A DNA stretch of 54,322 bases from an uncultured Chlamydiae bacterium. GTDB taxonomy: Bacteria; Chlamydiota; Chlamydiia; Chlamydiales; Parachlamydiaceae. Each line of letters opens with the position of its first letter. Position 1 is the first letter of the stretch. Under the pieces are notes generated by a model. The model was not told where the DNA came from, ran no database searches, and saw only the letters and a list, made by a program, of their open reading frames with translations. Of the stretch, positions 5,340 through 48,519 are shown piece by piece. The position numbers were made by a program, and so were the translations under genes. The DNA is taken from contig CAWHMU010000003.1 of the NCBI GenBank assembly GCA_963830365.1, positions 1 to 54,322 of the forward strand. The letters run 5' to 3'.

Positions 5340-5454
5340 GCTTGGTGGCGTTAGAGAGGGGGAATACCTGATCCTATTCCGAACTCAGAAGTCTAGCCGC
5401 TCATCGCCGATGGTACTGCACACAAGAGTGTGGGAGAGTAGGTCGTCGCCAAGC
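5340..5454 (+). rRNA. rrf: 5S rRNA, copy 2 (diverged, outside the operon)
   Basis: Matches 3861-3976 except 5 substitutions and one 1-nt deletion in the 5' half; 3' half identical. Confidence 0.95.
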
Positions 5455-40384: not shown

Positions 40385-41143
40385 AAAAATTATAACGCCC
40401 CCTTGGGGCTGGATTGTGTTTGTGGCACATCCCACGGTTTGCGTCTTTGACGCTACACCATGGGCTACAAATATTGTCGCTCCGTTGGAGCTTAGCAAAG
40501 CTGTTATAAATTTTGGTTCATCACACAAACGAGTACCTCGTCTTATATAAATTATAGATTCGTTCTTTTAAGCATGGTTGTTAGCCGCGAATAGCGGCGG
40601 CAGCATGTAGCCACAGGCGTAAGCCTGTGGTTGTGCCACCAAAGATACCAAGCCGTGATAACGGCGACAGCAATGACTAAGGATATTATCTGCTATCATA
40701 ACTGTATCGGATTCAACTTCCCTCGAAGTTGCTGTCGCCGTATTCACGGCTCACCTTTTGCTACATTTCATACCATAGGTTGACACCTATGGCTACATGC
40801 TTCCGCCTCTATCGAGGCTAACCAGACCTTCTGTGCTAGAATGTCGATTTGTTTCAAAGAGAACTTTACAAATATATTTTTAATTCTCGTTTTCCAACCA
40901 GCCATTATTGAGTCTTTTTAACGAATCCTCTAGGACAGGTACGCGATTGTGCGATGAACCTAAATTTTTTAGCATTTAAAACACCTCTTACGCCCTTAAC
41001 CTTTAAAAAATAAATTCCGCGAACTTTGGTTGCTGAGCTCCGTAGGAGTGGCCATATTTGTAGCCCATGGTGTAGCGTCGAAGACGCAAATCGTGGGATG
41101 TGCCAAAAAAACAATCCAGCCCCAAAGGGGCGTTATAATTTTT
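40385..41143. repeat. REP-C inverted doublet (~113-bp arms) interrupted by a MITE
   Basis: 40385-40498 is the reverse complement of 41029-41143 with a few mismatches; GTAGCCCATGG motif at 41060. Confidence 0.88.
40515..40960. mobile_element. ISL3-type MITE, family a, 446 bp, 8-bp TSD TAAATTTT, carrying a REP-A REPIN
   Basis: TIRs GGTTCATCACACAAACGAGTACCT / AGGTACGCGATTGTGCGATGAACC; TAAATTTT at 40507-40514 and 40961-40968; REPs at 40607 (+) and 40773-40796 (-). Confidence 0.92.
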
Positions 41144-44063: not shown

Positions 44064-44111
44064 AAACATAGCATTTGGTTGAAGGGCAAAGAAACTTTGA
44101 TTTAAAAAAAA

Positions 44112-44289
44112 GACTGCTGAGGGGTTTTGAGACGAAGCAATCAACTGGATATAATAAAGTGGGTCCACTTCCTAAAATTCTAGTTCGTAGGCATTGCTGC
44201 CTGGAAGCTATCCTTCTAGCGTCGTGATCCCTAACCAGTGTATTTCGTTGATGGGCTTTTTATGCCTCAAGGTGTCCCGTTCAGCAGTC
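44112..44289 (-). ncRNA. ssrS: Candidate 6S RNA
   Basis: 178-nt rod: closing stem GACTGCTGA/TCAGCAGTC; helices TTGAGGC/GTCTCAA, AAGC/GCTT, ATCAAC/GTTGAT; ~15+15-nt central bubble; GGGATCAC/GTGGACCC inner stem; T8 after the 3' end; own promoter. Confidence 0.78.
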
Positions 44290-44315
44290 AAACTGGTGAC
44301 TTGATCGTTACATTT

Positions 44316-44344
44316 ATTATAGCGAGCTAGTATTGTTTTGGCAA
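44316..44344 (-). promoter_or_regulatory. Sigma66/sigma70-type promoter of the 6S candidate
   Basis: Minus strand TTGCCA - 17 bp - TATAAT. Confidence 0.8.
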
Positions 44345-44375: not shown

Positions 44376-45410
44376 ATGTATGATATCCGGTTAGTTTGTT
44401 TCGTTAAAATATTAATTGCTATACTGTTGCTCCAGCAGCTCCCCGCCGCACCGGCGCCAGCCAAACGCTTCCGGCCTCTGAAAATCCACTTGATCGGCAC
44501 GCAAAATGGGCGCGGATTAGAGGCCGATCAGCAAATCCTTAAAAATGAAATCGAAGTTTTGGGCCACCAGGTGAGCTGCTTTGCCATCGGCAACGATGAG
44601 CCGGTCGAGGCCCAGGCTGACATCAATATCTTCTTCCAGGAGATTGATTTCCACCACCTCCCGCATGCCTGCCATAACTGGTTGATTCCCAATCCAGAAT
44701 GGTATGGGCAGTCTTTAGACGCCCTGAATGGTATCGATTTGATTTTGTGCCGCACCCAAGAGGTGGAGCGCATCTTCAACGGACTCAATAAGAAGACATA
44801 TCTTCTTGGTTTTACCAGCCGGGATTGCTATCAGGAAGAGGTGGTGAAAGATTTTTCAGCTTTTGCCCATATCGCCGGCATGAGCATCCAAAAAGGCACC
44901 CTGGCCATTGTGGAAGCCTGGCAGCACAATCCTCTGTTTGGCAAAGCGACGGTTTTGCAGTGTCGGACCTTTACACCGGTGACAAATCTGCCCAATCTGG
45001 TGTGGCTGGGGAGCCGCCTTCAAGAGAAGGAATTGCGCCTCCTGCAGAACCACTGCGGCATCCACCTATGTCTCAGTGAAACAGAGGGCTTTGGACACTA
45101 CCTCGTAGAAGCCATGTCCACAGGCGCCGTGGTGCTGACGACCGATGCCCCGCCCATGCATGAATTCATCACCGATCCGCGCTGCCTCGTGCCCTATCAA
45201 AGGCAGTCCGTCCAGAACCTGGCCATCAACTATTATGTCGATCCCGCCGCCCTGGCAGAAAAGATAAAGCATCTTCTGCAGCTGCCTGCCGACGAGCTGG
45301 CGGGCATCGGCCGCCAAAATCGCCTGGCCTATCTGGAGCTGACCAAGCAGTTCAGGCACAATCTACAGCGTCTTCTCAACGACCGCCGCCTCACCCACCA
45401 CAGCCAGTGA
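44376..45410 (+). CDS. Glycosyltransferase, GT-B fold (family 4-like)
   Basis: NWLIPNPEW, AHIAGMSIQKGT, HLCLSETEGFGHYLVEAMSTGAVVLTTDAPPMHE (EX7E motif). Confidence 0.88.
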   Translation: MYDIRLVCFVKILIAILLLQQLPAAPAPAKRFRPLKIHLIGTQNGRGLEADQQILKNEIEVLGHQVSCFAIGNDEPVEAQADINIFFQEIDFHHLPHACHNWLIPNPEWYGQSLDALNGIDLILCRTQEVERIFNGLNKKTYLLGFTSRDCYQEEVVKDFSAFAHIAGMSIQKGTLAIVEAWQHNPLFGKATVLQCRTFTPVTNLPNLVWLGSRLQEKELRLLQNHCGIHLCLSETEGFGHYLVEAMSTGAVVLTTDAPPMHEFITDPRCLVPYQRQSVQNLAINYYVDPAALAEKIKHLLQLPADELAGIGRQNRLAYLELTKQFRHNLQRLLNDRRLTHHSQ

Positions 45411-45435: not shown

Positions 45436-45648
45436 CCTCGCAAGAGGCGTCAGCGTGTGGCTACATGCTGCCGCCTCTATCGAGGCTGTAAAAATGTTCT
45501 CATGGCTTGTGCCCTATCTCTTGTATGGCAGTGCCAACTCAAATCCTTCCTTCACAGGGTCGAACGCGCAATTTGCCATTATGTATGATTTATTTAACAT
45601 CCTCCATTAGTTTACATATGGGGAGGTACGCGATTGTGCGATGAACTG
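45436..45648. mobile_element. Right half of a family-a MITE (one REP-A, subterminal region and TIR)
   Basis: Near-identical to 48115-48309; ends AGGTACGCGATTGTGCGATGAAC. Confidence 0.85.
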
Positions 45649-45801
45649 AATTATCTCGGGCAGGTACTCATTTGCATGACTAACCTAAATAGTTTTTTTT
45701 GTATGGAAGGCTTGTTAATTAGTTCCAGTTGATTGAGTAAGCTTTGTTTGTCAAATTTGTTTAAATAACGTCTAAATGTTATAATTAAAATTGTTTTAAT
45801 T

Positions 45802-47712
45802 ATGGCGTTTATTATGTCAGGCACAATCGATAGCTTTGATAGCGTCTCCTTTGGATCAGGTTCATTAAATGAACCGGGTACACCAAAGAGTATGCCGGGG
45901 AGTAAGCAGCAAAACACCGTTAGTGGTCATCAATTTACCACAGAAAACAGTATAGCTGAAACAACCAAAAACGGCGAAACCACCGAGAACTTGAGAAGTA
46001 AATCTACCGCGATAGCCAAGAATTCATTTTCTATGGCCTCATCTGCGGCCCCTGGCGCTGCTGTTGCATTACAAGAAAGGGTAACAGCTGGCATACCGAA
46101 AGGCGCTGCGGGGATGACGGCCAAAAAAATAGACGAATCAGCCCTTCAGGTTTTAATAGGTCATTTAGAGGCTGAATTTGAAGAGACAAGCACATATGTT
46201 GGCGAATTAGCAGCTAAACCTGCCGCTTCAATGAAAAAAAGCAAAATTACGGATTCTGCCGAGACGACAGGGGCAGAGCCGGGCAAAGCCTTGCTGACCT
46301 CAAAGTTGGCAACGCTCGAAGATGTCGTTGATAGAATAAAAGGAATCAATTCGAAGATTTTGGGGTCCATAAACACATCAGTACTCTCAAGTCCCGGAAA
46401 TGCAGCTGAATCCTCAGGCATGGCGGCTAGGATCTTTGTAACGCATGAGAGTAAAGTACATCAAATACTGATATCGGAAACTAAGGATAAAACCTTTACG
46501 GTCATCAATTTGACAGCAAAAGAGAGGTTAGGGGAAGGAAGTTTTGCCGAGGCGTTCGCTGTTATCAATCTCGTGTCAGGCAAAGATGAAGAGCAAGAGC
46601 TCGTGCTGAAATCATTACTTAGACCCGATGAAGAGGTTTCCAAGCAGGATATGGCTTCAGAGGTGTCAGCTTATCAAAGCATCCATTCCCTTCATCCCGA
46701 TGGTAAAGTAGCAGGGATATATCCAACCCCGCAAGGGGTCATGGATTATACGGAGGGAGCAAATGCAGAACAAAAGCGTGGCTTTCTTTGTGCCAAACGC
46801 GAGTCTGATGTCGCTGGTTTTAATGTGCTGCTTAAATGTCTTCCAGAAACAGGTACGGCAGATAAGAAAGCTGTCATTGAGAAACTAAAGGCAGAAAAAA
46901 TGGTTGCGAAAGGCAAGGGTCTTCTAAAAAGAATTAATGTAGCCATTAAACATGTAGAAAAGCTTACCAATCAGCAATTGGAACATATGCAAAGTCCGGA
47001 ATTTCTTAAAAAAAATCTGCAGCAATTAATTGGTGCAGGACGGTTCCTGGTAGAGCATAAATATGTGGTCACGGATATCAAACCAGAGAATATGTTAGTT
47101 GCTGCAGACGGAACGATCGAACTTGCTGATTTTGGAGGGGTAAAGAAATGGGACCACCCCGACCGCCTAGAATCCCCCTTGGGGCCCTTTTCGCCGTTCT
47201 ACACTCCACAACTACTTCGAGATGTATTGACGGATGTTTCAAATGAGGTTGATGAATTGAATGATGATTTGAATAACGTAGATGAGCTCATCACTTCTTG
47301 GGCCAATGCTAAGGAGTCATCGGCTAACGAAGGCCAGCCCGGAATTAAAGTGACTGAAGAGGAGAAAAAGGCTGAAAAGGCAGAACGGATCAAAACCCTT
47401 GAGAAAGCCAAAGGAGAGGTGATCAAGAAATTTGATGATCTTCAGGAAAAGCGAATGCTATACGCAATGGGACTTACCTTAAAGGCCGTGATAGAGGCCC
47501 ATCCTGTTGGTAAAACAGAGGAAGGTAAAAATCTGTTAGAAATTATATCAAACATGATCCTTGAATACCCTCCGGATCGAAAAGCTGGCGTGGGACGCGA
47601 TACAAGTATTACTGATGAGAATGCATCTAAAAGAATGGATTTTAAACAAATATTTGATCTGGTGTCAAAATGGGAGGGCGCCCCTACTAAGCCAAGTCAA
47701 GTGATTGGATAG
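45802..47712 (+). CDS. Ser/Thr protein kinase-like protein with low-complexity N-terminus (effector-like)
   Basis: LGEGSFAEAF Gly loop, LVLK, alphaC Glu (MASEV), TDIKPENML catalytic loop, LADFGG. Confidence 0.85.
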   Translation: MAFIMSGTIDSFDSVSFGSGSLNEPGTPKSMPGSKQQNTVSGHQFTTENSIAETTKNGETTENLRSKSTAIAKNSFSMASSAAPGAAVALQERVTAGIPKGAAGMTAKKIDESALQVLIGHLEAEFEETSTYVGELAAKPAASMKKSKITDSAETTGAEPGKALLTSKLATLEDVVDRIKGINSKILGSINTSVLSSPGNAAESSGMAARIFVTHESKVHQILISETKDKTFTVINLTAKERLGEGSFAEAFAVINLVSGKDEEQELVLKSLLRPDEEVSKQDMASEVSAYQSIHSLHPDGKVAGIYPTPQGVMDYTEGANAEQKRGFLCAKRESDVAGFNVLLKCLPETGTADKKAVIEKLKAEKMVAKGKGLLKRINVAIKHVEKLTNQQLEHMQSPEFLKKNLQQLIGAGRFLVEHKYVVTDIKPENMLVAADGTIELADFGGVKKWDHPDRLESPLGPFSPFYTPQLLRDVLTDVSNEVDELNDDLNNVDELITSWANAKESSANEGQPGIKVTEEEKKAEKAERIKTLEKAKGEVIKKFDDLQEKRMLYAMGLTLKAVIEAHPVGKTEEGKNLLEIISNMILEYPPDRKAGVGRDTSITDENASKRMDFKQIFDLVSKWEGAPTKPSQVIG

Positions 47713-47770: not shown

Positions 47771-48309
47771 GGCTCATCACGCAAATGAGTACCTGTCCAT
47801 GATGATTCGTCAAAAAGCCTTAGTAATTGATGGTTGAAATATGAGAAGTAATGATCTATTTGTAATGTTCTCTTTGAAACAAATCGGCATTCTAGCACAG
47901 AAGGTCTAGTTAGCCTCGATAGAGGCGGAAGCATGTAGCCATAGGTGTCAACCTATGGAATAAAATGCAGTATAAAGAGAGCCGTGAATACGGCGACAGC
48001 AATTTCGATGGAAGCTGAATTTGATGCAATTATTATAGCATATACTATCCTTCAGTCATTGCTGCCGCCGTATTCACGGCTTTGTTTCTAAACATGCGAT
48101 TACCACACGCTGACGCATGTGGCTACATGCTTCCGCCTCTATCGAGGCTGTAAAAATGTTCTCATGGCTTGTGCCCTATCTCTTGTATGGCAGTGCCAAC
48201 TCAAATCCTTCCTTCACAGGATCGAACGCGCAATTTGTTATTATGTATGATTTATTTAACATCCTCCATTAGTTTACATATGGGGAGGTACGCGATTGTG
48301 CGATGAACC
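47771..48309. mobile_element. ISL3-type MITE, family a, 539 bp, carrying a REP-A REPIN (no exact TSD)
   Basis: TIRs GGCTCATCACGCAAATGAGTACCT / AGGTACGCGATTGTGCGATGAACC; collinear with 27605-28148; REPs at 47935 (+) and 48103-48126 (-). Confidence 0.88.
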
Positions 48310-48519
48310 AAAGTTATTAATTGAGGTGGCCGACGGCGTCAGCCTGTACGGAAGGCAAAATGCTATGGGAAGGACTAGATGACATCTCCGGGGTCTAGGA
48401 ACAGGACATATATCAAAAGTTTATAGAGGAATCGCGTGCGAGCCTGATGACTATAAAGAGATAGGCTTGCCTTCGTCGTATTTCACATTTCGTAGTTGAA
48501 GACTTTTGTGCGTGAGGCG

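Follow-up and report, generated by a model that had tools for sequence, protein, structure and literature searches.

A conserved, structured non-coding RNA gene, present as one copy in every genome that carries it, is encoded on the minus strand (44112..44289) of the window, i.e. the whole 54,322-nt stretch of DNA that was analysed. Together with its homologues, it most probably represents the divergent 6S RNA clade of environmental chlamydiae, a reading to which we assign a probability of about 0.85. The RNA family itself is real and conserved and, by score, is not a member of RF00013. 6S RNA is among the few near-universal transcription regulators of Bacteria.

The family was delineated by searches of increasing reach. 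A blastn search of 41 genomes yielded long matches in six relatives, all limited to positions 54-247 of the query, which correspond to the rod described below. The covariance model R1, built from these seven sequences (the query and the six blastn relatives), finds exactly one copy in 26 of the 41 genomes and a match in 66 of 150 genomes across the phylum. A second model, R2, comprises 41 of the 69 collected sequences, picked for diversity and shorter length, and gives matches in 74 of the 150 phylum genomes at E ≤ 1, of which 71 are strong (E ≤ 4.4e-5). The three weak ones sit in or across ORFs and were attributed to chance. The weak R2 matches in three Chlamydiaceae-like genomes and in one genome of family f19, as well as a second match in genome G006, were rejected likewise, since they lie in or across ORFs at unrelated loci. 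R2 non-matches are not equivalent to absences, because the phylum search scored 18 candidates per genome. Scanning the GTDB collection for an exact pattern returned 38 stretches, 34 of them confirmed by R2. The confirmed stretches belong to records labelled Chlamydiae, Chlamydiales, Parachlamydiales, Parachlamydiaceae, Simkaniaceae and Ca. Protochlamydia, plus a single one labelled Verrucomicrobia; by kinship, the window's genome is therefore itself chlamydial. Pattern matches in four named non-chlamydial genomes had no R2 match and are considered to be due to chance, and no match to the family was found on plasmids.

According to both the fold and the family model, the window's copy is a predicted 6S-like RNA forming a rod that is 178 nt long with both strands of the closing stem included (all of its parts are given on the minus strand). 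The 5′ strand of the perfect 9-bp closing stem, GACUGCUGA (44281..44289), pairs with UCAGCAGUC (44120-44112), after which the DNA has a T8 run corresponding directly to a U8 tail (44104..44111). Helix P2, located beside the central bubble, is formed by AUCAAC (44247..44252) and GUUGAU (44145-44140). The bubble consists of the putative template, or 5′, strand (44232..44246), in which A44244 corresponds to U44 of E. coli 6S RNA, and the putative non-template, or 3′, strand ACUUUAUUAUAUCCA (44146..44160), in which A44160 corresponds to E. coli A131. The apical arm, running from GGGA to ACCC, occupies 44161..44231 and is ~25 nt shorter in many homologues. The rod, the closing stem and the T8 tail proposed in the sequence-only reading are correct base for base, and its bubble strands match ours, the 3′ strand being 15 nt long when its final A is counted. 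Slight pairing within the bubble is predicted for some family members, among them the window's copy. Folding, which had been suggested as a check, gives −59.2 kcal/mol for 44310-44104 (z = −3.88), with none of 200 shuffles equally good. The plus strand, too, yields a stable fold (z = −3.20), and thus folding energy is insufficient to fix the strand.

Conservation of the structure is apparent from covariation, which had likewise been proposed as a check and which supports the rod. In a MAFFT alignment of 41 sequences, not fitted to the model and with the structure set from the alignment, 86.2% of the cells pair, compared to 74.6% in shuffled alignments and 34-52% with slid partners. Compensatory changes on both sides are displayed by 26 of the 32 pairs. 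In the model-fitted alignment of 26 sequences, pairing reaches 90.1% and 43 of 49 pairs change on both sides (20 of 49 among the first seven sequences). G-U pairs are common when the element is read on the minus strand. The stem-to-stem length varies between 146 and 196 nt, nearly all of this variation being confined to the apical arm. Of the 69 sequences, 67 could be anchored, and among these the 5′ strand of the bubble ranges from 12 to 19 nt and the 3′ strand from 13 to 16 nt. Both bubble strands, typically ~16 and ~15 nt long, are unpaired across the family, with a mean unpaired probability of 0.69 for the 5′ strand (67 sequences). Conserved motifs include CGA(U/C)A, GGGA and ACCCAC(C/U)U..GUUGA, and a U-run (at least six T in 10 nt) follows the closing stem in 59 of the 69 homologues.

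The relationship of this family to 6S RNA (SsrS) emerges from the homologues rather than from the query. Rfam 15 returned no 6S match in a scan of the window, and for the query no match at all, whether the gathering score or E 10 served as the cut-off, so that the RF00013 cmsearch proposed in the sequence-only reading was negative for the window's own sequence. RF00013 was also found in none of 41 genomes (the window's genome and 40 relatives) and in none of 13 further chlamydial loci, searched in a larger search space. In 5 of 20 homologues, however, RF00013 is the best of 4227 families, aligning over the full length on the same strand with 18.5-30.5 bits (best E = 0.0019). The opposite strand never scored, and GGGA and CCCACCU are in register in these alignments. 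The gathering score of 46.4 bits is reached by no family member, the best homologue standing at 30.5 bits, and neither Ms1 nor any other Rfam family gave a match. For the proposed 6S identity, the covariation, the bubble geometry with its motifs and the sub-threshold RF00013 scores of homologues speak in favour, whereas the lack of an RF00013 match for the query, the decisive one among the proposed checks, speaks against it. The family shares with 6S RNA a rod (here 146-196 nt) with a central bubble of ~16/~15 nt, a single copy per genome, and CGA(U/C)A, GGGA, (A)CCCACCU and GGUU in like order and spacing. By contrast with RF00013 members such as E. coli ssrS and B. subtilis 6S-1, all chlamydial sequences fall below the Rfam cut-off, large internal loops and a GGGA/CCC helix interrupt their closing arm, their apical arm is often ~25 nt shorter, and they neighbour lplA and a PMT_2 gene, with ygfA not seen among the nearest ORFs.

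The shared motifs were also examined in the reverse direction. Four short motif matrices derived from chlamydial rows only were applied to 30 proteobacterial RF00013 members, which scored 9.1 on average versus −2.5 for the antisense strand, 1.7 ± 5.4 for shuffled and 0.9 ± 5.6 for flanking sequences. In 29 of these 30 RNAs, the distance between the 3′ motif and the 3′ end is 54-63 nt (61 nt in the query), and in 21 of them the 5′ motif falls at position 36-41 (position 40 in the query). Since the motif windows were picked after the RF00013 alignment was known, and the 30 test RNAs are related to each other and represent the best RF00013 scorers of 40 genomes, the p-values overstate the effect and the result is supporting rather than blind. 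R2 found none of the 30 proteobacterial 6S loci and gave E. coli 6S RNA −0.6 bits, leaving it unrecognised. Seven metagenome stretches picked up by a motif scan as potential other 6S RNAs had no Rfam 6S match and were rejected. As a separate observation, several genomes from another phylum (G195, G198, G202, G206, G210, G212, G214 and G218) each contain three or four RF00013 matches, some of them close together, and possibly represent lineages with multi-copy 6S RNA.

The bubble is where a 6S RNA is copied into a product RNA (pRNA), which starts at U44 in E. coli 6S RNA and at C40 in B. subtilis 6S-1, as described in PMC8876501. In annotated E. coli ssrS, CCGA-U44-AUUU and UUC-A131-CCUUGAACCAAGGGUU are spaced by 88 nt; their equivalents in the query are separated by 85 nt. 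Among 67 family members, the position equivalent to U44 is a pyrimidine in 58 (U in 50, C in 8) and is preceded by A in 60 and followed by A in 56; the A131 equivalent is A in 64 of 69 homologues. A template from which a transcript starts with a purine would be expected to show this pattern, in which U and C replace each other and purines are rare. In the window's copy, A occupies the usual template position, and the nearest pyrimidine, U44242, lies two bases further in. No pRNA-induced release element is clearly conserved in the family. A 3′ bubble hairpin of at least 3 bp is predicted in 34 of 67 members with the template blocked versus 23 of 67 with it unblocked. Seven of 67 members, the window's copy among them, are predicted to form a collapse helix, and covariation in the hairpin is weak (130/260 pairs, shuffles 120 ± 6, 93/2000 shuffles; 65/69 rows anchored, a few of them wrongly).

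The best surviving alternative, which we consider improbable, is that the RNA is derived from or resembles 6S RNA and works otherwise, for instance by binding core polymerase, as Ms1 does, or some other protein, without making product RNAs. It would be compatible with the uniformly sub-threshold RF00013 scores, the blindness of R2 to known 6S RNAs and the shortened apical arm of many members. It also has a precedent in actinobacterial Ms1, a polymerase-binding RNA with a 6S-like fold from a phylum once believed to lack 6S RNA, which differs from 6S RNA in binding the core enzyme, according to PMC9130861. Nevertheless, the chlamydial RNA, unlike Ms1, retains both the template and the non-template motifs of 6S RNA, down to the template pyrimidine and the A131 equivalent, and matches neither Ms1 nor any other Rfam family. 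A need for a dedicated model is not unique to chlamydiae. The lineage-specific 6S-Flavo (presumably RF01685) had the same need and differs from the chlamydial sequences in giving no match to them in any Rfam scan.

Another RNA that invites comparison is ctrR0332/CPn0332, encoded 3′ of ltuB in Chlamydia. It is similarly of interest as a very abundant RNA enriched in elementary bodies (EBs), accounting for 78% of putative mRNA reads in EBs (PMC2817459), and was once examined as 6S-like (PMC2817459, PMC3333780), with section 8 of PMC3333780 describing a test against sigma28 only. It differs in being ~240 nt long with several hairpins and its own terminator. Covariance model and HMM comparisons between ctrR0332 and the chlamydial 6S-like family gave no match in either direction, and we reject it as a disguised homologue, although on visual inspection its GGG..ACCCGCU pairing bears a resemblance. 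A ctrR0332-like RNA with an invariant AGAUCUCCAAAAUCU-like loop motif and a GAUGCAC..UGCAUC hairpin is kept 3′ of ltuB at 23 of 27 loci (L105-L109, L145-L162) and was not found at the four loci of sister genera.

Upstream of the rod on the minus strand is a sigma70/sigma66-type promoter, TTGCCA-17-TATAAT (44316..44344), with the −35 element TTGCCA at 44344-44339, the −10 element TATAAT at 44321-44316 and a 17-nt spacer. It agrees with the consensus at 11 of 12 positions and predicts a start near 44309, which bears out the promoter and the ~20-nt leader described from sequence alone. With such a start, the 5′ leader would occupy 44290..44309; it is not conserved and, by analogy with known 6S RNAs, is likely trimmed off. 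The region contains three promoter-like sites versus 1.5 expected from shuffles, and 10 of the 69 homologues have an upstream site that matches at least 10 of 12 positions, compared with 4% of shuffles. No classical short-hairpin terminator was found at the locus. ORFs of 50-86 codons overlap the element, and a flanking-ORF scan of 26 homologues detected no conserved ORF across it, in agreement with the earlier statement that no convincing ORF is present. On one side, a lipoate-protein ligase A/B gene (lplA, PF21948; 43350..44063, plus strand) lies behind mnmG/gidA and converges on the RNA gene; on the other, a group 1 glycosyltransferase gene (44376..45410, plus strand) diverges from it. Convergent lplA is the downstream neighbour at 32 of 69 homologue loci, and 22 loci have a PMT_2 mannosyltransferase gene upstream in the same orientation, whereas the glycosyltransferase gene, present at 2 of 69, is not conserved as a neighbour. 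This variability of neighbours fits the expectation for an independent gene.

It appears very improbable that the element acts in cis, as a bidirectional terminator or 3′ antisense of mnmG-lplA, or as the 3′ UTR belonging to the mannosyltransferase gene that precedes it. The proximity of convergent lplA or of the PMT_2-family gene at the above loci, and a strong promoter of its own in just 10 of 69 homologues, would suit such a role. However, convergent lplA is missing from 37 of 69 loci and neighbours switch freely, terminators are not characterised by conserved unpaired motifs or by a bubble of fixed size, and no element was found beside lplA in family f19 (22 loci) or family f20 (five loci). 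An origin as a DNA-level palindrome or mobile repeat, to which the dozens of copies reached by the genome's palindromic repeat families and the folding of both strands might point, is hardly tenable and largely refuted by copy number, since the element is single-copy wherever it is found and unrelated to the genome's repeats, including the local ones, for which the sequence-only reading had already stated this, and it has frequent G-U pairs on the minus-strand reading as well as a promoter and a U-tail in the correct order.

Three further observations concern the element and its homologues. At loci L081-L083, a tblastn match to MnmG/GidA lies downstream on the same strand instead of convergently, possibly reflecting a mere shared FAD-binding domain. 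A second 11/12 promoter-like site, TTGAGA-17-TATAAT (44127-44155, plus strand), is located within the RNA gene and faces the glycosyltransferase gene. Judging from the alignments, this site does not seem to be conserved, but it could drive antisense transcription in the window's genome. A lone 166-nt contig of one DNA sequencing run spans 44158-44289 and then diverges, and was not counted as evidence.

The divergent 6S RNA family is unevenly distributed within the phylum. Family f20, in which LtuB is found in 27 of 29 genomes and genomes measure 1.0-1.4 Mb, appears to correspond to Chlamydiaceae. In this Chlamydiaceae-like family, R1 detects the RNA in none of 26 genomes and R2 gives chance matches alone. 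On the whole 1.14-Mb chromosome G049 of this family, neither R2 nor the motif scan revealed a real copy. The best R2 match there (17.8 bits, E = 0.27), an 86-nt hairpin resembling a shortened copy, is antisense in a conserved gene for a 581-aa protein, and the best motif matches (at most 28, a score exceeded by 60 of the 69 family members) all lie in ORFs. The lplA loci of five Chlamydiaceae-like genomes have no element, and in all five lplA abuts ndk, leaving no room for one. Similarly, no element was found at the lplA loci of 22 f19 genomes, among which the lone R2 match is due to chance, and f19 (e.g. G042 and G117) has either lost the gene independently or has a more diverged 6S RNA. A very diverged copy is conceivable in both f20 and f19, because R2 overlooks genuine 6S RNAs from a different phylum. 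The lineage distribution appears to reflect loss rather than gain.

By analogy with the E. coli and B. subtilis systems, the RNA would be transcribed from the sigma66-type promoter and trimmed to the rod, which would bind the sigma66 RNA polymerase holoenzyme as an open-promoter mimic. The 3′ bubble strand would take the place of the non-template −10 strand, and the 5′ bubble strand would serve as the template. Once nucleotide levels rise, a product RNA would be copied from the bubble into the AUCAAC strand, and unwinding of the AUCAAC/GUUGAU helix would release the polymerase. For the family, this product is predicted to start with a purine at the U/C that lies three bases inside the 5′ bubble strand, giving the consensus 5′-AUCGUUGA.., whereas in the window's copy the start would probably be two bases further in, giving 5′-AUUUCGUUGA... 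The family, its fold and its motifs are observed directly, and the later steps of this mechanism are extrapolated from E. coli and B. subtilis.

A role in the transition from reticulate body (RB) to EB had also been suggested for the RNA. A universal role of this kind is unlikely, because Chlamydiaceae share the developmental cycle and complete it with no copy detected. For environmental chlamydiae, a role linked to a stage of the cycle is nevertheless plausible, given that 6S RNA increases in Legionella and Coxiella within host cells (PMC4228915). Our guess is that the RNA would accumulate when growth stops, in the late inclusion or the elementary body. A broader scenario, which we put forward tentatively and regard as possible rather than likely, is that this is the first 6S RNA of Chlamydiota: an old gene of amoeba- and invertebrate-associated chlamydiae that parks sigma66 polymerase late in the cycle or in the EB for a fast restart, and that has been lost in Chlamydiaceae, where shutdown would be achieved by other means.

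The suspicion that the RNA was not catalogued for this lineage is consistent with the absence of an Rfam match, including RF00013 in the 41 genomes, and among the matches listed in a search of freely accessible literature, none reported a chlamydial 6S RNA; within that scope, the family is uncatalogued. Wehner 2014 reportedly lists tentative 6S candidates, which may include environmental chlamydiae. Chlamydiae are one of three branches without a known 6S RNA according to PMC4607514 (2015, citing Wehner 2014), and C. pecorum is reportedly the sole chlamydia analysed by Brewer 2021. A chlamydial 6S family would fill this gap at the phylum level, and it supplies a model for annotation. For the silencing and restart of transcription between reticulate and elementary bodies, a polymerase-parking RNA becomes a specific candidate in the environmental lineages. 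The apparent absence from Chlamydiaceae recasts earlier negative searches as probable lineage-specific loss and allows a clean comparison.

Several other features of the window deserve mention. Palindromic intergenic repeats (MITE/REP-like) are located at 40385-41143, 45439-45695 and 47771-48320, and three repeat probes gave 73, 131 and 48 blastn matches of at least 80 nt in the window's genome. Between positions 45802 and 47712 (plus strand), with repeat copies on its flanks, lies a gene whose 636-aa product combines a Ser/Thr kinase domain with a long N-terminus of low complexity; this protein may be a secreted effector-type kinase. Finally, a second, lower-scoring 5S rRNA copy is present at 5341-5454 (plus strand), 1.4 kb behind the 5S gene of the operon.
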